Positions 30,944-46,328 of a stretch of DNA of 64,000 nucleotides are shown in pieces (within the stretch, counting starts at the first letter, position 1; each line of letters opens with the position of its first letter). Source of the DNA: Terriglobia bacterium (lineage in GTDB: Bacteria; Acidobacteriota; Terriglobia; Bryobacterales; Bryobacteraceae). The position numbers and the translations under genes were made by a program. The notes below the pieces were generated by a model, which was not told where the DNA came from, searched no databases, and worked only from the letters and a program-made list of their open reading frames with translations. The stretch lies in contig JAJPIT010000017.1 in NCBI GenBank assembly GCA_021324615.1, forward strand, positions 19,021-83,020, written 5' to 3'.

Positions 30944-31012
30944 GACCGGGCCGCTGCACAGACGGCAAGGCTCGAGCCCGCCCGATGAGATTCCGCGCCG
31001 CCAAGAGCCGGG

Positions 31013-31945
31013 CTACGCCTTTGCGGCGACGCCAAGTTTTTCCCAGTCCGATGCTTCACCGAATTTTTGCGCGGTCACTGAGCCGTCGATATTTCGAACC
31101 AGTCCCGTCAGAACGCTTCCGGCGCCGACTTCGATAAAACGAGACGCGCCTCTTTCGATCAGCAGCCGGATGGTTTCCGTCCAGCGCACCGGATTCGGAA
31201 CCTGGTGGTAAAGCCCTTCACGCGCCTCCGCGCCGCACCGGACTTCCCGGGCCTGCCAGTTGTTGATCAGCGGAATCGACAAATCGCGAAACGGGGTGGC
31301 CTCCAGATCCGGCTTCAATCGTTCCTGCGCGGGTTTCATCAGCGGGCAATGGAACGGAGCGCTGACTTGCAGCAAGACGGCGCGGCGCGCCCCGGCGGCC
31401 TTGGCGAGCTCCACGGCCCGGTTTACCGCGCCCGCGTGTCCGGCGATCACCACCTGCTCCGGCGTATTGAAATTCGCGGCCGCGACCACTTCGCCTTGGG
31501 AGGCCTGCTCCAGCACGCCGGCCAGCTTTTCCTCGGGTAATTTGAGCAGGGCGGCCATGGCTCCCATGCCCTCCGGCACGGCTTCCTGCATGTACCGGCC
31601 GCGCTTGCGCACCAGGCGGATCGCGTCGGCGAAGTCGATCGCGCCGGCCGCCACCAGAGCCGAATATTCGCCCAGGCTGTGCCCGGCAACGTAATCGGCC
31701 GCCAGTCCTTTGGCCCGCAAGACCGTCCAGGCGGCCACGGAAACCGCCAGCAGCGCCGGCTGCGTATTTTCGGTCAGCCGGAGTTGATCCTCCGGTCCCT
31801 CAAAGCACAGCTTCGAGATAGGGAATCCGAGCGCGCGGTCGGCCTCCTCAAAGACGCGGGCGGCTTCCGGGTAAGCATCGGCGAGGGATCGGCCCATTCC
31901 CGCGAATTGAGCGCCCTGGCCGGGAAAAAGGAAAACGGTGGACAT
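31013..31945 (-). CDS. fabD: malonyl CoA-ACP transacylase FabD
   Basis: From the internal Met: MSTVFLFPGQGAQFAGMG, the active-site GHSLGEYSA and 310 aa in total. The Arg-rich N-terminal extension of the longest ORF (to 32242) overlaps the upstream gene and is rejected. Confidence 0.9.
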   Translation of the reverse strand: MSTVFLFPGQGAQFAGMGRSLADAYPEAARVFEEADRALGFPISKLCFEGPEDQLRLTENTQPALLAVSVAAWTVLRAKGLAADYVAGHSLGEYSALVAAGAIDFADAIRLVRKRGRYMQEAVPEGMGAMAALLKLPEEKLAGVLEQASQGEVVAAANFNTPEQVVIAGHAGAVNRAVELAKAAGARRAVLLQVSAPFHCPLMKPAQERLKPDLEATPFRDLSIPLINNWQAREVRCGAEAREGLYHQVPNPVRWTETIRLLIERGASRFIEVGAGSVLTGLVRNIDGSVTAQKFGEASDWEKLGVAAKA

Positions 31946-31946
31946 G

Positions 31947-31990
31947 GAAGAAACAGGTCCGGGACCGCCTCGGCGTTCCCGGCTTTCTTC
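31947..31990 (-). terminator. long GC-rich hairpin abutting the fabD start codon (terminator of the HDOD gene and/or fabD leader structure)
   Basis: The minus-strand RNA reads GAAGAAAG-CCGGGAACGCC-GA-GGCGGTCCCGG-ACCUG-UUUCUUC-C-AUG. The inner stem has about 10 bp with one mismatch. The outer stem is the 7-bp pair GAAGAAA/UUUCUUC. Confidence 0.4.
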
Positions 31991-32019
31991 TATGTATACC
32001 TCAGCTATGTATACGTCAG
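31990..32019. repeat. tandem direct repeat, 2 x 15 bp (CTATGTATACCTCAG / CTATGTATACGTCAG)
   Basis: The two units match at 14 of 15 positions and each contains the palindrome GTATAC. Unit 2 encodes the last codons and stop of the HDOD gene. Unit 1 is intergenic, 44 nt upstream of the fabD ATG. Confidence 0.85.
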
Positions 32020-33012
32020 CGCCTGGATGCTGCGGTCCTGCTGGGGGACCAGCCGCGCCAGATCGGACTCTTTGAGTTGCGCGCGCTCGAGCGCAAGTCG
32101 CAGGCGCGCGGCCGAGGGAACGTCCTCTCCGGCGTCGCTCCAATGTTCGACCAGGAACAGGATCGCGGCCAGACGGTCGCCGGTTTTTTCCGGCTGATGA
32201 TGAAACTCGACGGCGGTCACCAGCGGCTCGGGGAAGCGCCACCCTTTGAGGGCGCGCGCTCCGGCCTGCGCGTGGCTGAAGCCGGATAGCATGCGCTCGG
32301 CCAGAAAGGGCTCGCAGCCGGCCCGCGTCAGATACTCAAAGCGGGACTGGAAGGCGGCGGGCAGCATCATCATCGCCAGCCTGCCGATGTCGTGAATCAG
32401 CCCGGCGAGAAAGGCCTCGTCGGGATCCGCCGCCCGGCTGGATTCCGCCAGGGTGCGGGCCGCCTGCGCGGCCGCCAGCGAATGCATCCACAAGGGGCGC
32501 AGCGGAGCGCTGGAGTACAACGGCCGGAGCGAGGCCGCGTAAAGAATGCGCGCCGCCCGCGCGGCCCCGATATAGCTGATTGCGTGAGCGATGGTGGAGA
32601 TGCTCCGGCGCGCGCCGCTGGGGCCGGAGTTCGCCGCGCCGATGAGCTCGGCGGCGATCTTCTGGTCGCTGGAGGCGACGGCCTCCAGCTCCACCCCCGA
32701 CCAATCGCTGCTCATCAGCATCTGCAAGGCGCGCTGCGCCACCGCCGGAAAAACCGGCAGGCGCGCGATGGCCAGATCCAAATCTTGCAAAGTCGCGGCG
32801 CGGAGACACTCCAGCCCGGCGGCGGCGATCGGATCGGGCGGCGTTTCCGCTCCCCCGGAGAAGGGCTCCCAGGCGAAGTGATGATTCACCGCCTCGGCGA
32901 TCTCCAGAACCTCCTGCGTTGCGCCGCCGCGCGCGCTCTGTTCAATGGCCAGTGACAGGGCGGCGATCCGCCGGTAGTAAGCTTCCGTTGCCGGATCGGG
33001 TTGCCCGGACAT
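32005..33012 (-). CDS. HDOD-domain signalling protein
   Basis: The HD-like motif LIHDIGRLAMMML sits within a helical HDOD-type region (LPVFPAVAQRALQMLMSSD...). The start is taken at ATG 33012 (MSGQPDP), which lies 8 nt after a sigma28-type -10 box. The longest ORF starts at TTG 33033. Confidence 0.7.
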   Translation of the reverse strand: MSGQPDPATEAYYRRIAALSLAIEQSARGGATQEVLEIAEAVNHHFAWEPFSGGAETPPDPIAAAGLECLRAATLQDLDLAIARLPVFPAVAQRALQMLMSSDWSGVELEAVASSDQKIAAELIGAANSGPSGARRSISTIAHAISYIGAARAARILYAASLRPLYSSAPLRPLWMHSLAAAQAARTLAESSRAADPDEAFLAGLIHDIGRLAMMMLPAAFQSRFEYLTRAGCEPFLAERMLSGFSHAQAGARALKGWRFPEPLVTAVEFHHQPEKTGDRLAAILFLVEHWSDAGEDVPSAARLRLALERAQLKESDLARLVPQQDRSIQALTYT

Positions 33013-33020
33013 CAATTTTC

Positions 33021-33047
33021 TTATCGGCCGCAAGGCGCCCGTCTATA
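33021..33047 (-). promoter_or_regulatory. candidate sigma28 (FliA)-dependent promoter of the HDOD gene
   Basis: The minus strand reads TTTTTTATAGACGGGCGCCTTGCGGCCGATAAGAAAATTGATG. That gives TATA-N15-GCCGATAA with a perfect 8-mer -10 element, ending 8 nt before the ATG. Confidence 0.45.
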
Positions 33048-33136
33048 AAAAATAGGCGATAGAAAAGGTGATTCTTTTCGCCGCCCGCGCGCGTCTTTAA
33101 TCGGTGAACGCGAGTTCTGTTCTCAGGAGGAGTCAC

Positions 33137-33331
33137 GTGAACAAACCGCAGGCCAAGACTGAAACGGGCAAGGTTTATTGCCCCATCTGCACCCATACTG
33201 TGGACGCGCAGGTTCACCGCATTCGCGGCCGCTACGCCCGTCGGCTCGCCGTAAAACCGGGGCAGCGCTGCCCGCACTGCGCCGCGCCCCTGGATGCGGG
33301 CTATATTTTCCGGTCCGGCCGTGCGGCCTGA
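33137..33331 (+). CDS. small zinc-ribbon protein (64 aa, CPIC...CPHC)
   Basis: AGGAGG lies 6 nt before the GTG at 33137. Sequence: VNKPQAKTETGKVYCPICTHTVDAQV...GQRCPHCAAPLD. The ORF track starts at 33104. Confidence 0.55.
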   Translation: MNKPQAKTETGKVYCPICTHTVDAQVHRIRGRYARRLAVKPGQRCPHCAAPLDAGYIFRSGRAA

Positions 33332-33382
33332 TCCGCGAGAACCGGCTCAACCCATTCGAGCCTTGCCTGTTATAGTGGAGTT

Positions 33383-33619
33383 GTGAGACGAAAGCGCACG
33401 CCCGAATCCGAACCGGTTCCGGAAGCGATTGTGACGGAGGCGATCATCGAACAGGCGCGCCGCGCCATTGAAGCGGATCGCGTCCGGAAACCCGCCTCTT
33501 GCACGGTCTGCGGCGGCGAGTGCGCTCCCAACTCCACCGAAGGCTTGTGCTGGGTCTGCCGACGCCTCAAGCTCAGCGCCTGGCGCGACGCCGATTCGCA
33601 GATGTCGGCGCAGGAATAA
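33383..33619 (+). CDS. small Cys4 (CxxC-x10-CxxC) protein, 78 aa
   Basis: ORF-track protein contains CTVCGGECAPNSTEGLCWVCRR. A GGAG lies just upstream of the GTG. Confidence 0.4.
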   Translation: MRRKRTPESEPVPEAIVTEAIIEQARRAIEADRVRKPASCTVCGGECAPNSTEGLCWVCRRLKLSAWRDADSQMSAQE

Positions 33620-33669
33620 CCTGTCCGAACTTTTCCGCTCCCGATTCCGTATCCCTGCCAGGACCAAAT

Positions 33670-33870
33670 ATGCTCACGTTCCTGCTGTGGTGCATCCTGC
33701 TGGTGCTCTGCTGGCCGCTGGCGCTGCTTGCGCTGTTCCTTTATCCGATCGTGTGGCTTTTCCTGCTGCCCTTCCGCATTGCCGGCATCGCCGTTGGAGG
33801 CGCGCTTGGCCTGGTCTGGGCCGTGGTGACGCTGCCGTTCTTGCTGGCGCGGCGTCTGGCGCGGATTTAA
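33670..33870 (+). CDS. small hydrophobic membrane protein (66 aa, 2 TM)
   Basis: The in-frame ATG at 33670 gives MLTFLLWCILLVLCWPLALLALFLYPIVWLFLLPFRIAGIAVGGALGLVWAVVTLPFLLARRLARI. Confidence 0.4.
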   Translation: MLTFLLWCILLVLCWPLALLALFLYPIVWLFLLPFRIAGIAVGGALGLVWAVVTLPFLLARRLARI

Positions 33871-33888
33871 TTCCGAATCGGGGCGGCG

Positions 33889-34164
33889 TTAGGGATGCTC
33901 GGTGGTGGGATCGATCATCTTGCGAATTTCCGTAATCTTTGTTGCCGGAAAGCCGCTGAGGCGGGCATGCTCGCGGATGATCTCTTCGTCCTTGGCCAGG
34001 TACACGCAAAACGTTTTGTCGCCGGCGACGAACGATTCCACCCATTGAATATCCGGTCCCAAAGCCCTGAGGGCGCTGTTTGATTTTTTGGCCGCCTCGC
34101 GAAGCTGCTCACGCTCTAAAGTTCCCACTCCGGGAATCTCCCGTTCGATGACAAAACGCTTCAC
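33889..34164 (-). CDS. DUF4242-like small protein (91 aa)
   Basis: AAGGAGG lies 5 nt before the GTG start. The pattern MKRFVIEREIPGVGTL...WVESFVAGDKTFCVYLAKDEEIIREHARLSGFPATKITEI matches my memory of DUF4242 family members. Confidence 0.5.
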   Translation of the reverse strand: MKRFVIEREIPGVGTLEREQLREAAKKSNSALRALGPDIQWVESFVAGDKTFCVYLAKDEEIIREHARLSGFPATKITEIRKMIDPTTEHP

Positions 34165-34205
34165 TCGTCCCTCCTTATGATTGCTCAGGCTACACTATTG
34201 TAGCG

Positions 34206-34991
34206 ATGCGGAGCGCCATCATTGCGGTTCCGGTTCGAAGAATGGGCGGCCCCGAGGATTCCATCGAGCAGGACCTGCTGGCGGTGGAAGAGCCGCTGGA
34301 AATCCGCGTGAATGGCCGCAACGTCGCCATCACCATGCGGACCCCCGGCAACGACGAGGAACTGGCTGCCGGCTTTCTGTTCACCGAAGGGGTTTTGAGC
34401 GGCGCGTCGCAGATCCGGTCCATCACGGCGGAGAAGAATATCGCCGCCGTTTCTCTCACCGCAAGCGCCGATCTGTCGCGGCTGGAGCGCCGCTTTTACC
34501 GGAGTTCGAGCTGCGGGGTGTGCGGCAAGGCTTCCATCGACGCCATCGAACTGGCCGACGGTGCGGAGCCCGTCCGCGGCGGCCCGCTTGTCGCCCGCGA
34601 AACGCTCGGCCGCCTTCCCGAAAAACTTCGCGCCCGCCAGCCGGTTTTCGCGCGTACCGGCGGCTTGCACGGGGCGGCGCTGTTTGACGCCGCGGGCGAA
34701 CTGCTGGAGGTCCGCGAGGACGTGGGGCGGCATAATGCGCTCGATAAGTTGATCGGCGCGGCGTATTTGCGCGGCGCGCTGCCGCTGGCCGACCGGATTT
34801 TATTGCTGAGCGGGCGCGCCAGTTTCGAGCTGCTGCATAAGGCGGTGATGGCCGGGATCGCCGTGGTGGCCGCCGTCGGGGCGCCATCCAGCCTGGCGGT
34901 GGAGGTGGCGTTGCGCTTCGGCGTGACGCTGTGCGGCTTCCTCCGCCCGGACCGGTTCAACGTTTACTCCGCCCCGTCCCGCTTGCTGTGA
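34206..34991 (+). CDS. fdhD: formate dehydrogenase accessory sulfurtransferase FdhD
   Basis: Contains SSCGVCGKASID (catalytic Cys loop), GGLHGAALF and VGRHNALDKLIG. 261 aa. Confidence 0.85.
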   Translation: MRSAIIAVPVRRMGGPEDSIEQDLLAVEEPLEIRVNGRNVAITMRTPGNDEELAAGFLFTEGVLSGASQIRSITAEKNIAAVSLTASADLSRLERRFYRSSSCGVCGKASIDAIELADGAEPVRGGPLVARETLGRLPEKLRARQPVFARTGGLHGAALFDAAGELLEVREDVGRHNALDKLIGAAYLRGALPLADRILLLSGRASFELLHKAVMAGIAVVAAVGAPSSLAVEVALRFGVTLCGFLRPDRFNVYSAPSRLL

Positions 34992-35022
34992 CGAGCCTAA
35001 GCCGCCCGGCCGCCAGCGGCGG

Positions 35023-35907
35023 TCAGCGCACAACGGCGAGCGCGCCGCCAAAGGGGAACTGCGTGCCCGGATCGGAAAACGGCACGCGCACGTAGGCCAT
35101 GGCGGCGACTTTTCCGAGCGCCGGAGAAAACGCCGCGCTCATGATTTCGGCCTGCTCGGTCTTGGCGCCCGGCGGCGGAGGTTCCTGGGTATCGATTTCC
35201 AGGCGCCGCAGCAGGCGATGAATCTTGGCCTGGCTGCGCACGCGTTCGACAATCTCCTGGCCCAGATAGCAGCCCTTCTGGAAATGCACGCCGCGCAGTT
35301 GGCCGGTTTCCTGCACCAGAAAACGCTCGCTGATCTCCTCGCCGTAGCGCGGGCGGCCGTTTTCGATGCGCACGATGCGCGCTTCCTCCGGCGTTGCGGC
35401 GTCCAGCTCCAGCGGCAGGCCGCCGGAATGAAAGATAAAAAATCCGCCGGCGCCGGTCGAATCGATGCGGGCGACGATACGGTCGCCCCACTTGAGCCAG
35501 GAGTAGGGCGCCTCAGGCAGCGGCGCGCCCGCCCGCGCCAGCGCCTGCGCCGCCCCCGGACCTTCCACCGCGGTGGTGAACAGATGTTCGGTGATGTCTT
35601 CGAGCAGAACGTCGTCGGCGATGATGTATCGCTCCAGATGCTCGAACAGTTTCCGGCGCGTTTCCGGTTCGGTGTCGATCACCAGGTGATCGTCGAAACA
35701 CAAAATATTCGCGTCGGCCAGGATGCGGCCCTGCGCGTTCAGGAAGAACGCATAGCAGCCCTGGCCGGGGCGAAGATGCTCAATATCGTTGGTGCACATG
35801 GCGTGCAGCAGGCGCGCACGATCCTCGCCGGTGGCGCGGAATTTGCCGCGCGCGGCGAGATCGATCCGCGCCGCCGTTTCGCGAAGCGCGCGGTAGCCGT
35901 TGGTCAT
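35023..35907 (-). CDS. folate-binding YgfZ/GcvT-like protein
   Basis: From the internal Met MTNGYRALRE, with the YgfZ signature KGCYLGQEIVERV near the C-terminus. An ATGA overlap links it to the upstream membrane protein gene. Confidence 0.72.
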   Translation of the reverse strand: MTNGYRALRETAARIDLAARGKFRATGEDRARLLHAMCTNDIEHLRPGQGCYAFFLNAQGRILADANILCFDDHLVIDTEPETRRKLFEHLERYIIADDVLLEDITEHLFTTAVEGPGAAQALARAGAPLPEAPYSWLKWGDRIVARIDSTGAGGFFIFHSGGLPLELDAATPEEARIVRIENGRPRYGEEISERFLVQETGQLRGVHFQKGCYLGQEIVERVRSQAKIHRLLRRLEIDTQEPPPPGAKTEQAEIMSAAFSPALGKVAAMAYVRVPFSDPGTQFPFGGALAVVR

Positions 35908-36269
35908 CGGAAATTGAGGGAAATCGCCCGCAAATATGCCGAAATCGCCACAATGGCCGCGCCGGAAATGACCACTCCGGTCAACGCTCGCGGTTTTTCC
36001 TTTCGATAGAGAATCACCGCGGCGAAAACGTGCAGCGCAAGAAGAACCTTGATTCCAAACCACAACTGATAGTGCGGCGGATAAGCCGGTTTGCTCAAGA
36101 AATTGTACAAACCGGAGGCAAGGATTCCACCGATGGCGATATAGGCCATCGGTCTAAAGCGGGCCGCAAGCTCGCCCGCGAAGAAGCGCGCGTAAAAAAC
36201 GCCGCCCAGCAGCACGATCACCGAAAAAATGTGCAGCCAGCGCGCGAAGATCGGCAAAGCCGAATCCAT
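35904..36269 (-). CDS. hypothetical 4-TM membrane protein (CopD/DUF2214-like)
   Basis: Sequence includes MDSALPIFARWLHIFSVIVLLGGVFYARFF, IAIGGILASGLYNFL and WFGIKVLLALHVFAAVILY. The ORF track starts 15 nt upstream, at 36284. Confidence 0.55.
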   Translation of the reverse strand: MDSALPIFARWLHIFSVIVLLGGVFYARFFAGELAARFRPMAYIAIGGILASGLYNFLSKPAYPPHYQLWFGIKVLLALHVFAAVILYRKEKPRALTGVVISGAAIVAISAYLRAISLNFR

Positions 36270-36291
36270 ACCCCGAGTATACAATCGAGGT

Positions 36292-36918
36292 GTGATTCAC
36301 GAGATCCTGCCAGTGGGGATGCTGCAATGCAACTGCTCGATTTTCGGAGACGAAGCCTCGGGCGAGGCGATTGTGATCGATCCGGGCGATGAGACCGGAG
36401 AAATCCTCAAAATTCTGGAGCGGCATCGGCTGCGCGTGAAGGCGGTTATCATCACTCATGCTCACATCGACCACATCGGGGGAGCGGCGAAGCTGAAGGC
36501 GGCGACGGGCGCGCCGGTTTGGATGAATGAAAACGATCAGGATCTGTACGATCAACTGGACGCGCAGGCGGCTTGGCTCGGCATGGCGCCGCCGGAGCGG
36601 ACCTCGATCGACGCGGCGGCGCGCGAAGGCGACGCGGTGAAGCTCGCCGCGGCGGAGTTTTACGTGATCGAGACTCCGGGCCACACGCAGGGGAGCATTT
36701 CGCTGTGGATTCCCGCGGAAAGGAAGCTGATCGCGGGCGACACGCTGTTCCGCGACTCGATCGGCCGCACCGATCTGCCCGGCGGCGACAGCCGGCAGAT
36801 TTTGAAGTCGATTCACCAGAAACTGCTCACGCTTCCGGAAGAGGCGGTGGTGATCCCCGGACATGGCCCGCTGACCACGATCGGGCGAGAAAAGGAACGC
36901 AATCCGTTCCTGGCCTGA
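36292..36918 (+). CDS. MBL-fold metallo-hydrolase (glyoxalase II-like)
   Basis: VIHEILPVGMLQCNCSIFGD at the N-terminus, the ITHAHIDHIGG zinc motif and TPGHTQGS. The GTG at 36292 is preferred. The ORF track starts at 36229. Confidence 0.82.
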   Translation: MIHEILPVGMLQCNCSIFGDEASGEAIVIDPGDETGEILKILERHRLRVKAVIITHAHIDHIGGAAKLKAATGAPVWMNENDQDLYDQLDAQAAWLGMAPPERTSIDAAAREGDAVKLAAAEFYVIETPGHTQGSISLWIPAERKLIAGDTLFRDSIGRTDLPGGDSRQILKSIHQKLLTLPEEAVVIPGHGPLTTIGREKERNPFLA

Positions 36919-36931
36919 GCGCCGCCAGGAT

Positions 36932-37135
36932 TTACTGCTTCTCTTCCGGATGCGCGGAGGTCTGCGCGGGCGCGGGGGCCTCGGGAGCATCCGCCGCGCT
37001 CTTCAGGGCGTCCTTGAATCCGCGGATCCCTTCGCCCAGCCCCTTGCCGAGCTCGGGAATTTTCTTTGGCCCGAACAGCAACACGCCGACCAGCAGAATG
37101 ACCAGCAGATGCATCGGTTGGAACAAGCCTTCCAT
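36932..37135 (-). CDS. tatA: twin-arginine translocase subunit TatA/E
   Basis: 67 aa: [44 protein letters not shown]. This gives a TM helix, the FG hinge and an amphipathic helix. Confidence 0.88.
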
Positions 37136-37197
37136 AGTGAACCCTACTCAAGTATGACATATGCCGCGCCCGGCGGATTTACCGGGGCAAGACGCCG

Positions 37198-38193
37198 TCA
37201 CAGATCGCTTAGAGCATAGACCAGGGCGCCTTTGGCCGTAGCGTGCAAGGGATTCTGCGCCATCCGGATCTCGGAAATGTCGGCAGGGAAGCCCTCCTCC
37301 AGCAGAATTTTTTCGAACCGGTCGCGGAAACCGGGCGGCAGCGCCGTTCCGCCGCTCAGCACCACCGGCAGCGGGCGGTGAAACTTGGGCAGATCCCGGG
37401 CGCGGGCGAAGGCTTCCTTGAGCGCGGCCACCAGCGAGCGGATCATATCGTCGTAGTAGACGCCGATCACCTGATGAATCTTGTCGGCGAAAAACCCGTT
37501 GAAATGAAACGAGTCTTCCTTGGTGAGCCGGATGCGGTTGGCGCGCTCGCCGGTCATCTGCGCCGCGCTTTGATCGATAAAATCCCCGGCCTTGGCGACG
37601 CTGAAGCTCATCACCGGCACCGAGAGATACGCCAGGCAGACGTTGCAGAGCCCGCCGCCCAGGCTGATGCCGATGCCGGTGTAGTTGGAGGATTCCAGCT
37701 CGGAATAGATCACCGCGAGGCCTTCATTGATGCTGGCCGCCTGGTAGCCAAGTTCGCCCAAAATCTGTTTCAGGGTCGCTTCGTGATAGGTCAGGCTCTC
37801 CTGCGCGCCGAGCGGAGCAGCCGGAACCGTAAAGCACAGCTTCTGCCGCTCCCCGCTGCGGGCGCCGATCATCAGCGAGATCATCTCCCGGATCATGCGC
37901 AGCCCGTCCGGCTCCCGCGGGTCGAGCACGCCTCCGGACATCGGACGGCGGATCTCGGCGTTCAAAATGCCGGCGAACTTCTCGCTCTCATTTCCATGCA
38001 CCACGATCCCGCCGGCCACCGCCGTGTGCGGGATCTTTTCCCGCTCCAGCACGTTTTCAGTGATTCTCGAACGCGGAATGCAAACGAAGGCGTTCAACTG
38101 CGACGCGAACTCGTAGTCCTCGCCCGGTTTTCGCGCCACCACGATGCGGCTGGTGCCGACGTCCAGGCCAATCGCATCCGAGTGCTTCGACAT
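37198..38193 (-). CDS. actin-like ATPase of the ASKHA superfamily (MreB/MamK-like), orphan
   Basis: Phosphate-1 is AIGLDVGTSRIVV. An MreB-like segment reads IRRPMSGGVLDPREPDGLRMIREMI. Phosphate-2 is IGISLGGGLCNV and the adenosine motif is VVLSGGTALPPGF. AAGGAGG is embedded in the last codons of the upstream gene, 10 nt before the ATG. Confidence 0.7.
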   Translation of the reverse strand: MSKHSDAIGLDVGTSRIVVARKPGEDYEFASQLNAFVCIPRSRITENVLEREKIPHTAVAGGIVVHGNESEKFAGILNAEIRRPMSGGVLDPREPDGLRMIREMISLMIGARSGERQKLCFTVPAAPLGAQESLTYHEATLKQILGELGYQAASINEGLAVIYSELESSNYTGIGISLGGGLCNVCLAYLSVPVMSFSVAKAGDFIDQSAAQMTGERANRIRLTKEDSFHFNGFFADKIHQVIGVYYDDMIRSLVAALKEAFARARDLPKFHRPLPVVLSGGTALPPGFRDRFEKILLEEGFPADISEIRMAQNPLHATAKGALVYALSDL

Positions 38194-38196
38194 GAT

Positions 38197-39354
38197 TCAA
38201 TTCCCTCCTTCGTTCTGTTTCAGCTCTGCTTCGATGTCTCTATAGCGATGCCGCAGCATCGCCCGATACTGAGCCGCCGGAGTATTTTGCGCCGCGGCCT
38301 GTCTTTCGATCTGGGCCCGCGCCAGAGCCACGCCGCCGAAATTCATGCCCAAGGCGCGCTCGTAGGCCGGATCGGCTTCGAAGCCGAAGGCGTAGATGCT
38401 GGGCAGCGGGATGGAGTAGTTGTCCGGCAGCCCCAGTTTGGCGAACGGAAAGTCCCCGGCCCAATCGGTGTGCGCGCCGACCTTCATGTTGAGCGGATTC
38501 ACCGAGACCTGCGCGTGCGTCACACAGTTCTCTGCCGGGATGCGGTAGCGGAAGCGCAGCGCTTCGGTCAGCACTTTCGCCGCCTGAATCTGCGCCGGCG
38601 TCACCGCCTCCGCCGCCCCGGTCTGCGCCTCCAGAGCCACTCCCAAAAAACTGTCGTTCAAATTGACGTAAATCTCCTCGCCGTCGGCCCAGATCGAATT
38701 TCCGGCGTGATTGGCCGCGTCCGTTTCGGCCACCACCGCGTAGACGCGCCCGAACCGGTCGATCACAAAATGATAGGCGCGCTCGGAGCGGACGACTTCC
38801 AGCAGATTCCGCCCCAGCCGCTGCAGCCTGCGATTCTGATCTTCTTCAAACGGCGGCACCAGGCTCTCGGTGGTGTGATAGACGATTCCCACCGGCGCAC
38901 CGCCATATCTCCAGGGAACCGGAGAGCCGGCAAGCGAGTAGACCGGGAAGCGGGCGCGCGGGCGGTTCGCGGTCAGAAACGTCCGGTCCACGCGCAAGCC
39001 GTTGCTGTAAACTTCCTCGGCTTCGGTCTTCTCGATGAGCCAGACCTGCGGCGGCATCGAGGGAGCTGCGCCGGCCGCGCGCGGAACGGCGAGCCCGCGC
39101 TCCCGCTCCATCGTCTCGGCCGATCCGCTCGGCAACCGCGCGGCGGCAACCGCGATCATTAACGGCACGGCGATAAGTCCCCAGCCGTGGAAACCGCGGC
39201 GCTTGGTTTGAAGCATGCGCCGCCGCAGATAGCGGAGCCGCTTTACCGGATCGGCGATGCGCCCGGCCCGCCACTCGATCCGCACCGCTTCGCCGAAGCT
39301 GGGGAAATCCGCCAATCGACTCCACCGCCCCGGGAAATTAGTGGCGTTCCGCAC
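38197..39354 (-). CDS. N-acetylmuramoyl-L-alanine amidase (Amidase_2/PGRP fold) with a twin-arginine-like signal or signal-anchor
   Basis: Amidase_2 motifs are IVYHTTES, AYHFVIDRFGRVYAVV, ANHAGNS and CVTHAQVS. The N-terminus has TKRRGFHGWGLIAVPLMIAVAAARLPSGSA. GGAGAG lies 6 nt before the GTG at 39354. An alternative ATG at 39216 would start at MLQTKRRGF. Confidence 0.78.
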   Translation of the reverse strand: MRNATNFPGRWSRLADFPSFGEAVRIEWRAGRIADPVKRLRYLRRRMLQTKRRGFHGWGLIAVPLMIAVAAARLPSGSAETMERERGLAVPRAAGAAPSMPPQVWLIEKTEAEEVYSNGLRVDRTFLTANRPRARFPVYSLAGSPVPWRYGGAPVGIVYHTTESLVPPFEEDQNRRLQRLGRNLLEVVRSERAYHFVIDRFGRVYAVVAETDAANHAGNSIWADGEEIYVNLNDSFLGVALEAQTGAAEAVTPAQIQAAKVLTEALRFRYRIPAENCVTHAQVSVNPLNMKVGAHTDWAGDFPFAKLGLPDNYSIPLPSIYAFGFEADPAYERALGMNFGGVALARAQIERQAAAQNTPAAQYRAMLRHRYRDIEAELKQNEGGN

Positions 39355-39506
39355 CGAAATCTCTCCACAGGAAGGGATCGGCCAGGACAGGGAAAAACCT
39401 TAGGCCTGCGTAGTCCGGCAGGGACTGAAATACATCGTTGAACGGAGACAAAAGACGGTGGATTCACGCAAGCCGCAGTACGCTGCTCACGATTTGCGCC
39501 AAAACC

Positions 39507-39514
39507 GCCGATAA
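39507..39514 (+). promoter_or_regulatory. isolated perfect sigma28-type -10 octamer (GCCGATAA)
   Basis: It lies 9 nt before the GTG at 39524. There is no TAAA-like -35 at the expected N15 spacing (CACG is found instead). Confidence 0.2.
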
Positions 39515-39523
39515 ATAAATGGC

Positions 39524-40036
39524 GTGATGACGTCCATCAGCTTCGAGGTGGGAGCGGTCTTTCTGCTGGCTGCCATGCTGCTTTATGGGTCACTCAGCGG
39601 CTTTCTTCCCCGGGCGTTGCACGCCGGAAAGGCGGCGCCGATAGGCATCGGCTGCTGTTTACTCGCCTACGCTTTGTACCGGACCGTTCCCGAGCTGCCA
39701 AACCTGTGGCGAGACGCCGACAGCAGGCCGGCTCCGCAAATTTCCAGCCCGGGGCCGGCAATCCCGCCCGCCGCCGGCCCGAAACGAGGCCGGGCGGCGG
39801 CTCCAACAACCCCACGCCAGCAGTCCTGGAAAACGACCACGGTCGGCGATTCGATTCCGCCCCCGCAGCCGGCTGCGGAACCCGCCGATCCGTCCGCCGA
39901 TCCGTCCCCGGTTCCGCCGGCGCCCTCCTCCAGCGAGCCTGCCTCGCCGGACGATCCCTACGACAGCGGCATAAAACGCGGGATCAAGCGCGTCGGCCGG
40001 TTTCTGCACATCGGCGGCAAGAACAACCGCCCCTAG
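39524..40036 (+). CDS. hypothetical membrane protein with a Pro-rich C-terminal tail
   Basis: Two TM segments (VGAVFLLAAMLLYGSLSGFL, IGIGCCLLAYALY) are followed by low-complexity P/A/S-rich sequence. Confidence 0.45.
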   Translation: MMTSISFEVGAVFLLAAMLLYGSLSGFLPRALHAGKAAPIGIGCCLLAYALYRTVPELPNLWRDADSRPAPQISSPGPAIPPAAGPKRGRAAAPTTPRQQSWKTTTVGDSIPPPQPAAEPADPSADPSPVPPAPSSSEPASPDDPYDSGIKRGIKRVGRFLHIGGKNNRP

Positions 40037-40046
40037 AGGGCTCGCG

Positions 40047-40667
40047 TCAGTACTTCCGCAAAACCGCCAGCACCTTCCCCTGAATGCGGACGGATTGTTT
40101 GGGAACAAAAATCGGCTGCATGGCGGAGTTGGCCGGCTGCAAGCGCACGCGATCGCCTTCTTCGTTGTAGAAGCGCTTGAGGGTGGTCTCAACACCGTCC
40201 ACCAGCGCCACCACGATATCCCCATCGCGGGCCTCGCCGGATTTTTGCACCAGCACGTAATCCCCGTCGCAGATGTGATCCTCGATCATCGATTCACCGC
40301 GGACCTGCAACGCGTAGGTGCCTGGGTCGCCCGCAAAATCGGCGAAACTGAGCGTGTCCTGCCCGGCGATGGCCTCCACCGGCGAACCGGCCGCGATTCG
40401 CCCCAGCAGCGGAACCTCCGCCGCGGGCGGCCGGTGCTGGCGCATCTCCTCGTAATACTTCGGCGCCAATTCAAGCGACCGGCTCTGATTGAACCCTCGC
40501 TTGAGATAATGTTTTCCCTCCAGCGCCAGAATGTGCTTGTGCACGGTTGCGAGCGAAGCCAGATTGAGCCCTTCGGCGATTTCCTCATAGCTCGGGCTGT
40601 AGCCGTGCTTTTCAAGAAAGCCGGCCAGAAACTCCAGAAACTCCTTTTGCCGTTTCGTGAGTGCCAT
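40047..40667 (-). CDS. lexA: LexA repressor
   Basis: N-terminal wHTH (LTKRQKEFLEFLAGFLEKHGYSPSYEEIAEGL). The cleavage-site region is PLLGRIAAGSPVEA. The S24 peptidase domain carries VRGESMI and VALVDGVETTLKRF. Confidence 0.9.
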   Translation of the reverse strand: MALTKRQKEFLEFLAGFLEKHGYSPSYEEIAEGLNLASLATVHKHILALEGKHYLKRGFNQSRSLELAPKYYEEMRQHRPPAAEVPLLGRIAAGSPVEAIAGQDTLSFADFAGDPGTYALQVRGESMIEDHICDGDYVLVQKSGEARDGDIVVALVDGVETTLKRFYNEEGDRVRLQPANSAMQPIFVPKQSVRIQGKVLAVLRKY

Positions 40668-40744
40668 GAAGATATTTTAGGCGAAGAAAAGGGGAATTTC
40701 AAGGGATGACCCATCCTCCGCTCAAGGCGCGCCCGCCGCAGGAA

Positions 40745-41074
40745 TTACCTGCCGCCGGCCGGATGCGGAGCGGGTTCAGGCAAGCGCAGCGGATCGTTGG
40801 GCATGATGATCCAGGCAACGATGTAGGCGATCGCGCCGAGCCCGCCCGAGCAGATCGCGAGAACCACCCAGATCAACCGGATTAGCGTCACGTCGACGCC
40901 GAGGTAACGCGCAAAGCCCGCGCACACGCCGCCGATCTTGCGGTCCTCGCGCGGCCGGCTCAGTTTGGGATAGGCCACTGGCGGGGGATAGGCGTTGGCG
41001 CCGACCGGCGCGCCGCATTGTGAGCAGAATTTCGCGGCATCGTCGTGGGAGACGCCGCAGCGGGTGCAAAACAT
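40745..41074 (-). CDS. PspC-domain membrane protein with an N-terminal zinc ribbon
   Basis: From the internal Met: MFCTRCGVSHDDAAKFCSQCGAPV (CxxC-x11-CxxC). The PspC motif follows: RPREDRKIGGVCAGFARYLGVDVTLIRLIWVVL. Confidence 0.72.
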   Translation of the reverse strand: MFCTRCGVSHDDAAKFCSQCGAPVGANAYPPPVAYPKLSRPREDRKIGGVCAGFARYLGVDVTLIRLIWVVLAICSGGLGAIAYIVAWIIMPNDPLRLPEPAPHPAGGR

Positions 41075-41186
41075 GAACGACCTCTCATGGTTGCTTACGT
41101 CTGGCGGACGGCTTTGGTTCCCGAATGCAAAGCGGAAACATTGCCGGCCATGGCGGATCAAACTCGGCAGGGCCTATTCTAGTAAC

Positions 41187-43016
41187 GTGAGATTGGGACG
41201 GGACGCGGCGCTTGTTTTCACGTTTTTGGCGATGGCTCCCGCCGCTCCCTCGCCGGTTACGCCGCAAGCGATCCTGGCGCATCTGGAGCGCGTCATTGCT
41301 TGGTATCGCGAAATCAGCGCGGTTTCGCCGCCTGCTGTCGACGTGCTGATCAGCGACGGCCTGCGGGAGGTGTCGTACAAGGCCGTGCAGCTTGCCTTCC
41401 GCTTCGGGCGCGCGGAGGCGGCGCTTTTGGGTGGCGATACCAACTCGCCGAAGGGCGCCGGCACGTTGCAGCAGGCCGCGCAGAGAGCCGCCGAGCGGGT
41501 GGCCGCCGTGCAGGCGCGGATCGCGCAGATCGACGCCGATCTGCCCAGGGCCGTGGGCAAGCGGCGCCAGACGCTGGAGGCCCAGAAGAACGAGGCCGGC
41601 GCCGAACTGGCGCTGGCCAGAGAGATTCAGACGACGGTTCAGAATCTGGTGAACTTCACCGGCTCGCTCGGCTCCGATAGCGGTGCGCTGGCCGGTCAGA
41701 TCAGCGAGCTGGAGCGGTCCGTTCCCGAGGTTCAGAGCGGCAAGGCGCCGCCGGCCCCGGCCGGCAACAGACCCGCTTCGCAAGTCAACGCCTTTTCTCC
41801 GGAGTCGGCCGGCGTGGTTGGGCTGGCCAGCGAACTCCTGAGCAACCACAGCAACCGGGCTCATCTGGTGTCGCTGCGCAACGACACGCGGGAGCTGGCG
41901 GCGGGCATCGACCGGCTGAAAGAGCCGCTGATCAGCCAGGCGCGCGAAGCCACCCAGCGCAGCGATCAGATCGCGAGCCGGAGCAGCACCGGAGACGCCG
42001 CCGAGCTGGCGGCGGCGCAGAAGGAGCTGAGCAGTCTGGCCGGGCAATTCAAGCAGCTTTCCACCGCCATCGTCCCGCTGGGAGAGGAAGGCATCGCCGT
42101 GGGCACGGCGGAAAGCTATCTGGACGAATCGATCGCGCGGATCGATCAGGAATCCTCGCGCACCGGCCGGTATCTGCTGATGAAGGCTGTGACGCTGGCG
42201 GTGGTGATCGCCGTGGTGCTGTTCATCAGCGAGATGTGGCGCCGCGCCACCTTCCGCTACGTGCGCGACGCGCGGCGGCGGCGGCAATTTCTGCTGCTGC
42301 GGCGGGTGGCGGTCTCAGTGGCGGTGATGCTGGCGGTGGTGTTCTGGTTCGTCAGCGAACTCGGCTCCCTTGCCACCTACGCGGGCTTTGTCACCGCCGG
42401 CGTCGCCGTAGCGCTGCAAAGCCCCATCCTGTCGGTGGTCGCCTATTTTTTCCTGATCGGCCGCTATGGAATCCGCGTCGGCGACCGGGTGACCATTTCC
42501 GGCGTAACCGGCGAGGTGATCGAGATCGGCCTGGTCCGGATCTACCTGGCGGAGCTGGCGGGCGCCGGACCCGATCTTCATCCGACCGGGCGCGTGGTGG
42601 TGTTTTCCAACTCGGTGATTTTCCAGCCGACCTCGGCGTTATACAAACAGATGCCCGGCATCGATTACGTCTGGCACACCGCGGCGCTGATTCTCAGCCC
42701 GGACAGCGATTTCCAGCTCGCCGAAAAAACCCTGAACGCGGCCGTCGATGGCTTCTTCGCGCAATACCGCGACGCCATCGAGCGGCAGTATCGCAGCCTG
42801 GAGCAGTCCGTGGATATGCACATCGCCCCGCCCAAGCCGGAGAGCCGTCTGCGTTTCACCGACGCCGGCCTGCAATACACAGTTCGCTATCCCGCCGAGC
42901 TTTCCCGCGCGGTGGAGATGGACACCGAGCTGCTGCGGACGCTTCACCACGCGGTGATGAAGGAGCCCAAGCTCAAATTCGCGCCGGAAGGCGTCCCCAA
43001 ATTGGAGGCGGCCTGA
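41187..43016 (+). CDS. MscS-family mechanosensitive channel with a long N-terminal coiled-coil/periplasmic region
   Basis: The C-terminal region GVAVALQSPILSVVAYFFLIGRYGIRVGDRVTISGVTGEVIEIGLVRIYLAE is the MscS TM3 plus beta-domain signature. The start is uncertain: GTG 41187 or ATG 41232. The ORF-track start at 40995 overlaps the PspC gene. Confidence 0.75.
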   Translation: MRLGRDAALVFTFLAMAPAAPSPVTPQAILAHLERVIAWYREISAVSPPAVDVLISDGLREVSYKAVQLAFRFGRAEAALLGGDTNSPKGAGTLQQAAQRAAERVAAVQARIAQIDADLPRAVGKRRQTLEAQKNEAGAELALAREIQTTVQNLVNFTGSLGSDSGALAGQISELERSVPEVQSGKAPPAPAGNRPASQVNAFSPESAGVVGLASELLSNHSNRAHLVSLRNDTRELAAGIDRLKEPLISQAREATQRSDQIASRSSTGDAAELAAAQKELSSLAGQFKQLSTAIVPLGEEGIAVGTAESYLDESIARIDQESSRTGRYLLMKAVTLAVVIAVVLFISEMWRRATFRYVRDARRRRQFLLLRRVAVSVAVMLAVVFWFVSELGSLATYAGFVTAGVAVALQSPILSVVAYFFLIGRYGIRVGDRVTISGVTGEVIEIGLVRIYLAELAGAGPDLHPTGRVVVFSNSVIFQPTSALYKQMPGIDYVWHTAALILSPDSDFQLAEKTLNAAVDGFFAQYRDAIERQYRSLEQSVDMHIAPPKPESRLRFTDAGLQYTVRYPAELSRAVEMDTELLRTLHHAVMKEPKLKFAPEGVPKLEAA

Positions 43017-43019
43017 GCG

Positions 43020-43799
43020 TCAGGACAACGCCGAATCCGCGGTGAAGATCAGGCTGGAGCAGGTGACCCCGGCTTCGGCTTTCTGCAACTCGGAGAGATC
43101 GAGAGCAATGACCTCGAATCCCGCCTTTTCGAGCATCCGGCGCGTTTTCGGAAACGACGCCGGCAGGATAATTTTTCCGCCGGCTTCGAGCACGTTTGCC
43201 GCGCTTGGCTCGTCTTCGGCCACATCGAACAACTCCAGCCTGGCGAAGGGCTGCATGTCGATGAGCTTGCGATTGACGAGGACGGCGTCCCCGCCCAGCG
43301 GGCAGATGGCGGATTTCAGGTGCAAGCATCCGCCAACGGCGGCTGGAACCACGCGGTAGCCGAACCGTTCCGTGGCTTGCGCCAGTTGCCGCGCCCCTTC
43401 CGGATTGGTGCGCCGGGAAATTCCGCAATACAGGGTCTTGCCGATGCGCATCACGTCGCCGCCTTCGATGGTGGCCGGTTCGCGGATCCACTCCAGGGGG
43501 CGATACGCCGCCAGCGCCGCCGCGATCGACTCCGCCTCGCCGCGGCGCGATACGGCGCCCATCCGGCATATCACGGCGATCTCGTCGAGCACCACCGCCG
43601 GGTCCTCGACGAACAAACCGTCGGGGAAGGCGGGATCGGGGGCAAGCGAGATGACGCTGAATCCCAACCGCCGCAGGCATTCCTCGTAGGCCAGGTGCTG
43701 CGCGGCGGCCCGGGCCGCGTCGATCGGAGTTCTCGCCAGAAACTCCAGCTCGCAGCGGGTGATGGAATCGCTCACCCGGCGCGTGATCGCGGTCCACAT
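43020..43799 (-). CDS. dimethylarginine dimethylaminohydrolase-like amidinotransferase-fold enzyme
   Basis: 259 aa. The N-terminus MWTAITRRVSDSITRCELEF and FPDGLFVEDPAVV are present. The C-terminal GVTCSSLIF carries the catalytic Cys typical of the DDAH/ADI superfamily. Confidence 0.7.
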   Translation of the reverse strand: MWTAITRRVSDSITRCELEFLARTPIDAARAAAQHLAYEECLRRLGFSVISLAPDPAFPDGLFVEDPAVVLDEIAVICRMGAVSRRGEAESIAAALAAYRPLEWIREPATIEGGDVMRIGKTLYCGISRRTNPEGARQLAQATERFGYRVVPAAVGGCLHLKSAICPLGGDAVLVNRKLIDMQPFARLELFDVAEDEPSAANVLEAGGKIILPASFPKTRRMLEKAGFEVIALDLSELQKAEAGVTCSSLIFTADSALS

Positions 43800-43808
43800 A
43801 ACAGTGTT

Positions 43809-43824
43809 TTGTTATATATTACAG
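43809..43824. promoter_or_regulatory. AT-rich 16-bp near-palindrome (TTGT-TATATATT-ACAG) filling the 33-bp divergent spacer
   Basis: It lies between the DDAH-like ATG (43799, minus) and the response-regulator GTG (43833, plus). It also contains TATATT/TATAAC -10-like hexamers for both directions. Confidence 0.35.
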
Positions 43825-43832
43825 ACTGCTTT

Positions 43833-44522
43833 GTGAGAATTTTGATTATTGACGACGATACCGAGTTGTGTGCGCTGCTCGATGAGTTTCTGAGCCGCGA
43901 GGGGTTTGAGACCAATGTGGCCCACGATGGCGCGCGCGGGCTGGAACGGGCCCGGACGGAAGCCTTCGACCTGGTCGTGCTGGATCTGATGCTGCCGCAG
44001 ATGGACGGATTGGCGCTGCTGCGCCAGCTTCGCGAGGTGAGCCGCGTGCCGGTGATCATCCTGACCGCGCGCGGCGAAGGCGAGGATCGCATCGCCGGGC
44101 TGGATTCGGGCGCCGACGACTATCTTGGCAAACCGTTCAATCCGCGCGAGCTGGTGGCGCGCATCCGGGCCGTTCTGCGGCGGGCGGCGCAGCGGCGCGG
44201 GCCCGTCGATGTGAACGGCGTCAGGCTCGATCCGGGAACGCGCGAGGTCTACTGCGACGGCCGCCGCGTCGAACTGACCACGCTCGAATTCGACATTCTG
44301 TAGCAACTGATGCGCTCGGCCGGCCAGGTGGTTTCGCGCGACGCGCTGATGAGCAGCATGTACAACCGCAAGGCCTCGCCCTTTGACCGCTCCATTGACA
44401 TGCACGTCAGCCATCTGCGCCGCAAGCTGGAAGCTCCGCGCGTGCTGATCAAGACCATTCGCGGCAGCGGCTATCAGTTCTGCAAATCCTCGGACGATTC
44501 GGCCGAGCGCGCCGCGACGTGA
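43833..44522 (+). pseudogene. OmpR/CpxR-family response regulator interrupted by an in-frame TAG (44301-44303)
   Basis: The receiver domain (VRILIIDDDTELCALL...DLVVLDLMLPQMDG...) and the winged-helix domain (QLMRSAGQVVSRDALMSSMYNRKASPFDRSIDMHVSHLRRKLE...IRGSGYQF) are in the same reading frame. They are separated only by TAG: ...TTLEFDIL*QLMRSAG.... Confidence 0.6.
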
Positions 44523-45808: not shown

Positions 45809-45830
45809 CTCCCGCCGGAGCGGCGTCCGA

Positions 45831-45864
45831 GTCCCCGCGCCCTTCCGGCGCGGGACGGATTTTA
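45831..45864 (+). terminator. intrinsic terminator after the histidine kinase gene
   Basis: The stem GTCCCCGCGCC / GGCGCGGGAC has a 1-nt bulge and a 5-nt loop, and is followed by GGATTTTA. Confidence 0.5.
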
Positions 45865-45917
45865 CGGCAATGCCCAGATGGTTGGAACGGCCGGCCTCCG
45901 GGCGGCGTCTTCCGGAT

Positions 45918-46328
45918 ATGCGTCTGATCCGAAGTTTCGCCGCGTTTCTTGCCGCTTCATGGCTGTGTGCGACCGCCAGCGCGCAGACGGCCGCGCCGAC
46001 ACCGCCCTCCGATCCCAACACGCAGTTCATCGATCAGGTCTTACGGACCGCAACCGCGGTTCAGGCGCTGGTGAAGTCGATGAATCTGGACAAGGCGCTG
46101 GCCGCCCAGAATGTTTATCCTCCGGGCGATCCGCGATCCCTTCAGCGGACAGCGGAATTCATCGGCGTGGGCGCGGGCGTCGGCATGGCGCTGGGCGAAA
46201 TGGCGCACAGCCAGAAGGGTGCCTTGATCGGAGCCGCGGCGGGGGGCGCCGGCGGCTTGATCGCCGATCAGATCCTTCGGCGTCAAGCGGCGCGGATGCA
46301 AAAAGATCCGGCCGATCCGATCCGTTAG
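45918..46328 (+). CDS. small secreted protein with a C-terminal glycine-zipper segment
   Basis: Signal peptide MRLIRSFAAFLAASWLCATASAQ. The glycine-zipper segment is GVGAGVGMALGEMAHSQKGALIGAAAGGAGGLIADQ. Confidence 0.5.
   Translation: MRLIRSFAAFLAASWLCATASAQTAAPTPPSDPNTQFIDQVLRTATAVQALVKSMNLDKALAAQNVYPPGDPRSLQRTAEFIGVGAGVGMALGEMAHSQKGALIGAAAGGAGGLIADQILRRQAARMQKDPADPIR

Follow-up and report, generated by a model that had tools for sequence, protein, structure and literature searches.

Conserved pairing of an Amidase_2 gene with a Volactin-family actin-like gene in Acidobacteriota: a putative two-gene morphogenetic module

The spatial control of peptidoglycan hydrolases is far less understood than that of synthases. 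Few solutions are known, namely FtsEX-EnvC, FtsN/SPOR, bactofilin-LmdC and MreBH-LytE. Here we describe a locus of Acidobacteriota, a phylum that dominates in soils but whose cell biology has hardly been studied, in which the gene of a predicted membrane-bound amidase directly precedes that of an actin-like ATPase of the Volactin family. The locus lies in a stretch of 64,000 nucleotides (nt), hereafter the window, from contig JAJPIT010000017.1 of a Terriglobia bacterium of the family Bryobacteraceae (assembly GCA_021324615.1, positions 19,021 to 83,020 of the forward strand). An earlier model-generated note on the window, made from its letters alone (the sequence-only reading), had grouped three genes as a candidate cell-wall module: an amidase with a possible twin-arginine (Tat) signal, an orphan MreB/MamK-like ATPase and tatA.

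The closest documented precedent is the BacA-LmdC system, in which the bactofilin BacA recruits the bitopic M23 peptidase LmdC via a conserved N-terminal cytoplasmic tail, the two genes being neighbours in many species (Hyphomonas neptunium, Rhodospirillum rubrum; PMC10945521). In Bacillus subtilis, the autolysins LytE and CwlO are under the control of MreB isologues (PMC3817527). For the Volactin family itself, VolA (HVO_2015) of Haloferax volcanii forms dynamic filaments whose tips contact the membrane, and it promotes the change from rod to disk shape (PMC10869688). In the literature, we found no study of bacterial Volactin members and no description of an amidase-volactin pairing, in line with the sequence-only reading, which had not recognized the arrangement as a known system.

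We propose, with a probability of about 0.6, that the amidase and the volactin form a two-gene morphogenetic module in which a volactin polymer binds the cytoplasmic tail of the amidase and positions or gates this periplasmic peptidoglycan hydrolase.

The amidase-volactin pair and its products

One genome per GTDB species was scanned for relatives of the window ATPase, and at least 579 stretches were found to encode one. The best 80 of these were analysed, all of them metagenome-assembled genomes (MAGs) of Bryobacterales/Terriglobia with a volactin identity of 63-91%. An amidase homologue was encoded directly upstream on the same strand in 79 of the 80 loci, and in the lone exception the contig ends 150 nt upstream. 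The gap between the two genes is at most 10 nt in 77 of these 79 loci, the genes overlap in 56, and 63 have a Shine-Dalgarno-like motif ahead of the volactin start. The volactin gene thus seems usually to be translationally coupled to the amidase gene. In the window, the junction reads ...cgAAGGAGGGaatTGAatcATG, with 3 nt between the amidase stop and the volactin ATG, so that the Shine-Dalgarno sequence of the volactin gene falls inside the last amidase codons. Many amidase orthologues end in E-G-G-(N/I), whose codons also supply the GGAGG ribosome-binding site for the volactin gene, and the conservation of this C-terminus is probably imposed by the RNA signal. No other neighbouring gene family was common to more than 20 of 81 loci. 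Among the 80 loci, tatA, lexA and the MBL gene adjoin the pair solely in the closest relative (L004, ATPase 91% identical), which indicates that the module consists of two genes and that tatA is a chance neighbour. The coupling of the amidase to an actin-like ATPase noticed in the sequence-only reading is therefore conserved in other genomes, while the meaning it attached to an amidase-tatA linkage is not borne out, tatA adjoining the pair in only one of these 80 relatives.

Clustering of open reading frames (ORFs) joined the amidase and volactin families, as a fusion protein would, but no ORF matched both, and the grouping was discarded as a clustering artefact; long volactin relatives have domains of other kinds or a further volactin stretch. 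A record titled 'MAG: Bordetella parapertussis' (L048, CALQCC020000014.1) contains a Bryobacterales-type amidase-volactin pair, at 66% and 47% identity, and its taxonomic label is probably wrong.

The ATPase aligned with the Pfam Volactin profile PF25216 over residues 7-327, spanning profile positions 2-321 of 321, with 270 bits against a cut-off of 35. PF25216 was also present in all 120 homologues among the matches listed. Scores with the other profiles lay below their cut-offs: MreB_Mbl (16.8 bits, cut-off 27), TIGR00904 (21 bits, cut-off 366), NCBIfam MamK (40 bits, cut-off 400), the Salactin models (19-23 bits, cut-offs 27 and 400), BeeR (17 bits, cut-off 530) and the FtsA models (under threshold). 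Judged by these scores, the ATPase is a full-length Volactin-family actin-like protein, and not an orphan MreB/MamK-like one as first read. A characterized family has thus been found for it, though not one with an unrelated role. The placement does not contradict the idea of a wall-related filament, because the sole studied member of the family is a cytoskeletal protein concerned with cell shape.

An AlphaFold2 model of the ATPase, built from an alignment of 27 diverse relatives, reached a predicted local distance difference test (pLDDT) value of 91 and a predicted template modelling score of 0.90. The top Foldseek matches of this model in the PDB were MamK, MreB and BeeR, with template modelling scores of 0.66-0.73 at 18-20% identity, whereas eukaryotic actin, EutJ and FtsA ranked below them. 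The actin fold covers residues 7-328 of 331 and leaves no amphipathic or membrane-binding extension. Residues D11, G13, G173, G179, G281 and G282 are invariant in 27 diverse volactin members, and the residues of the phosphate-1, phosphate-2 and adenosine motifs are conserved family-wide. The translation contains GLDVGTS, GISLGGG, LSGGTA and RRPMSGGVL, and the actin fold with nucleotide-binding motifs that had been read from these segments holds. Haloarchaeal homologues share 38% identity with the protein, in alignments covering 97-98% of its length.

Homologues of the amidase form more than 3,300 clusters, with lengths of about 325-441 residues among the matches listed. The catalytic domain matched Pfam Amidase_2 with 62 bits (cut-off 26) over residues 154-283, and it gave weak but consistent matches to the PDB structures of AmiD, AmpD and AmpDh3, aligned through H280. 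Conservation was assessed in 132 sequences from two Acidobacteriota classes, 76 from Bryobacterales and 56 that are Blastocatellia-like. H160, Y194, H216, E242, H280, H295 and D297 are invariant in all 132. E242 aligns with the catalytic Glu of AmpD IGIELEG and is the candidate catalytic residue, while H160, within an HTTES motif, and H280, aligned with the second zinc His of AmpD and AmiD, are candidate zinc ligands.

The amidase alignment falls into four parts: a variable stretch of about 25 residues, a motif at residues 26-45, a variable basic linker followed by a hydrophobic segment at about residues 55-74, and a conserved, predicted periplasmic portion that includes Amidase_2. The motif, IExRAxRIxDPxxRLR(F/Y)L, is almost invariant at P36 (131/132), R39 (126/132), L40 (131/132) and L43 (129/132). 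Within Bryobacterales, the identity to the window protein is 0.66 in this tail motif and 0.66 in the catalytic domain, compared with 0.20 in the linker and transmembrane segment and 0.10 in the first 25 residues. AlphaFold2 predicted helices at residues 22-31 and 36-52, with a pLDDT near 80 in a model whose overall pLDDT is 50. The Kyte-Doolittle maximum (1.67) was found in the 19-residue window starting at residue 54, and orthologues carry on average more lysine and arginine on the N-terminal side of the hydrophobic segment than on the C-terminal side (3.7 versus 2.0), an excess that favours an N-in topology. The amidase is thus predicted to span the membrane once, N-in, leaving about 55 residues as a cytoplasmic tail. 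A TTG at 39315 is a plausible alternative start, giving 372 residues, because most homologues begin about 13 residues downstream of the GTG; the conserved tail is retained with either start (GTG 39354 or TTG 39315).

A twin-arginine pattern of the type RRx-phi-phi was seen in few orthologues, 10 of 69 from Bryobacterales and 6 of the 51 that are Blastocatellia-like, none of these 120 has the strict consensus [ST]RRxF[LIVM], and in an alignment of 18 sequences several orthologues have no RR at the position of TKRRGF. Since the twin-arginine look is not conserved, we conclude that the N-terminus is probably a signal anchor with a functional cytoplasmic tail and not a Tat signal peptide. The sequence-only reading had allowed for both. 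Its Tat signal falls with the unconserved motif, while its signal anchor with a cytoplasmic tail agrees with the hydrophobic segment, the basic bias and a predicted tail of about 55 residues. The broader expectation that the amidase carries an export or anchor signal is likewise supported by this predicted hydrophobic, membrane-targeting N-terminus.

Other lineages and genomic setting

The linkage recurs outside Bryobacterales, and the tail motif was also found in the amidases of three loci from these more distant groups (L084, L086 and L087; Table 1). About 55 contigs of Blastocatellia-like origin carry it, and the order SPOR-Amidase_2-Volactin was found in essentially every one with sufficient upstream DNA. 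In all, roughly 140 gene pairs were collected. The product of the extra upstream gene of this version (L090-L169, e.g. L086:1208-2305) starts with a weak Zn-ribbon, continues with a transmembrane segment and ends in a SPOR domain, by sequence an FtsN-like layout. SPOR domains bind peptidoglycan glycans processed by amidases (PMC7822825), and because of this the SPOR partner fits, and points to, a genuine amidase activity of the neighbouring protein. A Zn_ribbon_4-Volactin fusion was also observed (P0250). In L087, tandem Volactin paralogues precede a tail-motif amidase, which hints at a heteropolymer in that lineage. In L089, an actin-like gene and a bactofilin gene flank a single wall hydrolase gene, which encodes an LmdC-like bitopic Peptidase_M23.

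The Volactin family is large: the scored candidates fall into about 3,660 clusters at 90% identity, and of the representatives at 50% identity, 1,212 have E < 1e-3 and 340 have E < 1e-30. In databases, its members go by the names 'hypothetical protein', 'actin-like ATPase involved in cell morphogenesis' or 'cell division protein FtsA'. Other branches have no hydrolase partner: they occur in gas-vesicle or exosortase/exopolysaccharide loci, or form fusion proteins with HU, receiver, Zn-ribbon, ParB-HTH or Wzz/BY-kinase domains. The link to an amidase thus belongs to certain Acidobacteriota branches within a modular family, different branches of which appear to be wired to different cargo. Fusions to an HU, receiver, ParB-HTH or Wzz/GNVR/BY-kinase module were observed in P0242, P0247, P0298, P0305 and L172, and one bacterial volactin sits between exosortase (EpsH) and TPR genes. 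A volactin 39% identical to the window ATPase (P0261) lies in a gas-vesicle cluster of a MAG labelled Minisyncoccales (L171:1-11044, GCA_049642725.1), together with three GvpL/F genes, GvpG, GvpO, GvpH, AAA_5 and CDC48-like AAA ATPases and an ArsA-like ATPase, suggesting an actin-like protein dedicated to gas vesicles. Haloarchaeal megaplasmids (Haloarcula/Natrinema, Halogeometricum) encode volactin homologues with 38% identity, annotated as 'cell division protein FtsA' or hypothetical. The one on pHBOR01 of Halogeometricum borinquense (L173, 240431-241618) has a C-terminal extension of about 70 residues and, nearby, an SMC-related gene specific to archaea. Two records of 'uncultured phage' that carry no annotation, LR756511.1 (595 kb; 548798-549796) and LR745208.1 (485 kb; 337426-338400), also encode full-length volactin relatives, with about 30% identity.

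Within the window, the three co-directional genes singled out by the sequence-only reading were recovered, as ORFs, strand, junction, Pfam matches and quoted motifs all agree (Table 1). The amidase translation contains IVYHTTES, YHFVIDRFGRVY, ANHAGNS, CVTHAQVS, TKRRGFHG and ARLPSGSA. The gap between the volactin gene and tatA, on the same strand, is 62 nt. Flanking genes encode HDOD, FdhD, GcvT-like, MBL, LexA, PspC and MscS-like proteins, and no mreC/mreD, par, mam or pil genes were found near the three genes, as had been noted before. Promoter and terminator scans of 36700-39800 yielded nothing useful, the sole terminator-like site on the minus strand lying within tatA, and no Rfam family was detected in 30000-46000. 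Control by the SOS response was considered, as lexA lies upstream on the same strand, and was rejected: no GTTCN7GTTC box was found between lexA and the amidase gene, the number of such boxes in the whole window is that expected by chance (43 observed, 47 expected), and lexA is a neighbour only in L004 among the 80 loci. An antisense ORF of 639 codons (37243-39162, plus strand) was set aside as a shadow of high GC content, its counterparts clustering merely through their overlap with the conserved genes.

A divergent ORF of 170 residues (39524-40036, plus strand), with a hydrophobic N-terminus, a proline-rich C-terminus and no Pfam match, is not conserved beside the pair in other genomes. Beyond lexA, a Zn-ribbon/PspC-domain membrane protein is encoded at 40745-41161 on the minus strand.

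Table 1. Features of the amidase-volactin locus in the window and related arrangements elsewhere
Feature	Position	Strand	Description
Amidase_2 gene	38197-39354	minus	ORF, 385 aa from GTG; Pfam Amidase_2; predicted single-pass membrane protein
Volactin gene (ATPase)	37198-38193	minus	ORF, 331 aa, ATG; Pfam PF25216
tatA	36932-37135	minus	67 aa; Pfam TatA_B_E, 67 bits; judged outside the module
Shine-Dalgarno AAGGAGG of the volactin gene	38204-38210	minus	Within the amidase codons for E-G-G
Tail motif codons, residues 26-45 (IEWRAGRIADPVKRLRYLRR)	39220-39279	minus	Conserved; proposed docking site of the volactin polymer
Predicted hydrophobic signal-anchor/transmembrane segment, residues 55-74 (FHGWGLIAVPLMIAVAAARL)	39133-39192	minus	From hydropathy
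Amidase_2 catalytic domain codons, residues 154-304	38443-38895	minus	Pfam match at 154-283; predicted periplasmic
L084			ATPase 55% identical; Amidase_2 overlaps Volactin by 4 nt
L087	3041-6598		ATPase 46% identical; Volactin-Volactin-Amidase_2
Blastocatellia/Pyrinomonadaceae (by source names)			ATPase about 44% identical; SPOR protein-Amidase_2-Volactin; gaps 40-570 nt
L089	2631-6597		ATPase 40% identical; Response-regulator/coiled-coil-Volactin-LmdC-like Peptidase_M23-Bactofilin

A proposed mechanism and its rivals

In the proposed module, the amidase would be an inner-membrane protein whose N-terminus stays on the cytoplasmic side, exposing there about 55 residues that include the P-x-x-R-L-R-F/Y-L helix. 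A single transmembrane segment would lead to a Zn-dependent Amidase_2 domain facing the periplasm. Volactin would polymerize in the cytoplasm and bind the amidase tail, and the polymer would set where, or whether, the amidase cleaves stem peptides off peptidoglycan, in the service of daughter-cell separation or of local shape remodelling. Seen from the other side, the amidase would equally tether the ends of the filament to the envelope. We regard this mechanism as the simplest, because the volactin has no membrane-binding extension of its own and the only cytoplasmic feature of the membrane protein to which it is coupled is a short, near-invariant helix.

Several points weigh against this proposal. 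In Amidase_2 enzymes, the third zinc ligand is an Asp or Cys located 8-10 residues past the second His, and the catalytic Lys sits two residues ahead of that ligand. Alignments of the catalytic domain stop at H280 or place the following loop ambiguously, and neither phmmer with a 40-residue loop segment nor hhalign against the AmpD segment placed the third zinc ligand. If a loop insertion of seven residues is assumed, HTDWAGDFPF would correspond to AmpD KTDPGPSFDW and its D297 would be the third ligand, and His295 would replace the usual catalytic Lys. With a pLDDT of 50, the amidase model from AlphaFold2 is too poor to serve as a structural check of the active site. The tail helix is basic and amphipathic, and it may instead rest on the surface of the membrane or serve to bind a different partner. 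The residues that set amidase-linked volactins apart (R16, L33, S42, N68, L134, R222 and L254) are spread along the sequence, with no clear binding patch among them. The intergenic gaps of 40-570 nt in Blastocatellia indicate that tight coupling is not universal.

The non-canonical third ligand and catalytic Lys also lend themselves to a reversed logic, in which the amidase protein mainly anchors volactin filaments, its periplasmic domain gripping peptidoglycan with little or no cleavage, and in which the task of the filament lies elsewhere, in the positioning of DNA or organelles or in cytoplasmic organization. We consider this alternative unlikely. In its favour, the volactin has no amphipathic or membrane-binding extension, the filaments of H. 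volcanii touch the membrane by their tips (PMC10869688), and the fusions to HU, ParB-HTH and Wzz/BY-kinase domains and the gas-vesicle and exopolysaccharide loci indicate that the family serves varied cargo. However, the invariance of H160, E242, H280, H295 and D297 goes beyond what would be expected for binding alone, the SPOR partner in Blastocatellia fits real denudation of glycans, and the M23 peptidase to which the volactin of L089 is independently linked suggests wall hydrolysis as a shared theme.

A three-gene wall module, made of a Tat-exported amidase, a dedicated tatA and an MreB/MamK-like filament, is very improbable. In E. coli, the Tat pathway exports AmiA and AmiC, and it can also insert N-terminal anchors that stay uncleaved, e.g. 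those of Rieske proteins. The window protein itself has a twin-arginine look, with TKRRGF ahead of a hydrophobic stretch, and tatA does follow closely on the same strand. Synteny largely refutes such a module, however, with tatA beside the pair in one of 80 related loci; the pattern is rare among orthologues and its strict form absent from them, and the conserved 20-residue motif in front of the hydrophobic segment is unlike a Tat n-region. We give just as little credence to a cassette of mobile, phage or defence origin (in which a segregation actin of the ParM type would go with an endolysin, or which would be a lysis switch for abortive infection), as the weak matches of the amidase domain to PHROG endolysin and amidase families (1e-8 to 1e-3) and the distant volactins in the two uncultured jumbo-phage records (about 30% identity) and in 13 IMG/VR contigs are set against the lack of any PADLOC match, the lack of a bacterial plasmid homologue (plasmid matches being haloarchaeal megaplasmids only), the absence of amidase, M23, SPOR or bactofilin neighbours at every viral locus found, the housekeeping genes in the flanks and the fact that the best 80 of the at least 579 stretches all come from Bryobacterales/Terriglobia.

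A wider view builds on the module of a volactin polymer and a tail-bearing amidase, and we offer it tentatively, at somewhat less than even odds. Acidobacteriota would possess a third actin-based wall system, beside the MreB elongasome and the FtsA divisome, in which the polymer holds a hydrolase and not synthases, and the Volactin family would consist of 'cargo-specific' actins serving amidases, an LmdC-like M23 peptidase with bactofilin, exopolysaccharide machinery or gas vesicles. If it works as proposed, the two-gene module would offer a compact two-protein case of an actin-like polymer wired directly to an amidase. It would give a first functional handle on the bacterial Volactin members, thousands of sequences that are nearly all called 'hypothetical' or misnamed FtsA, and would link an archaeal shape-determining actin to a role in bacterial wall remodelling. 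The tail motif of the amidase provides a precise and mutable candidate interface.

Comparison with known systems

The resemblance to BacA-LmdC begins with gene order, as in both cases a cytoskeletal gene is conserved beside the gene of a bitopic peptidoglycan hydrolase. The hydrolases share a layout, which for the window amidase is predicted from sequence: the N-terminus forms a short, conserved tail in the cytoplasm, a single transmembrane helix follows, and the catalytic domain lies in the periplasm. In BacA-LmdC, the tail is the determinant of polymer binding; for the window amidase, we propose the same role. A volactin relative, that of L089, directly adjoins an LmdC-like M23 gene and a bactofilin gene. 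The systems differ in the polymer, which has a nucleotide-binding actin fold here, whereas bactofilin is a nucleotide-independent beta-helical protein. They also differ in the enzyme, an Amidase_2 protein that would remove stem peptides as opposed to an M23 endopeptidase, and in the tail, predicted to be helical in the window amidase, while that of LmdC is a beta-hairpin.

A looser parallel is provided by FtsA and FtsN of the E. coli-type divisome, in which a bitopic protein docks on an actin-fold protein by its N-terminal cytoplasmic peptide. The structure of FtsA with FtsN residues 1-29 (PDB 7q6i) was among the fold matches of the ATPase model. In that divisome, amidase activity is coupled to the recognition of denuded glycans by SPOR domains (PMC7822825), and the Blastocatellia version of the pair has an FtsN-like SPOR gene upstream. 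In contrast to FtsA, the window ATPase has neither a 1C domain nor a C-terminal membrane helix. The cytoplasmic tail is on the amidase itself, which has an Amidase_2 domain and not the Amidase_3 domain of AmiA/B/C, and no SPOR gene occurs within the window.

With VolA, the ATPase shares its Pfam family over the full length (270 bits), the 38% identity referring to haloarchaeal homologues and not to HVO_2015 itself, with which no direct comparison was made. Archaea have no peptidoglycan, and the Halogeometricum locus that was inspected has no amidase partner, whereas the bacterial clade has a dedicated membrane partner in a different envelope.

The control of LytE and CwlO by MreB proteins is again a looser parallel, in that peptidoglycan hydrolases depend on an actin homologue for their activity or placement. 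Those hydrolases are secreted NlpC/P60 endopeptidases under indirect control (CwlO via FtsEX), they have no cytoplasmic tail and their genes do not lie beside mreB genes; the window ATPase, for its part, reaches 17 bits on MreB models with a cut-off of 27. Taken together, these comparisons suggest that the amidase-volactin pairing, a cytoskeletal polymer with a bitopic wall hydrolase, is of a kind already known, and that the combination of an actin-like protein with an amidase is new.

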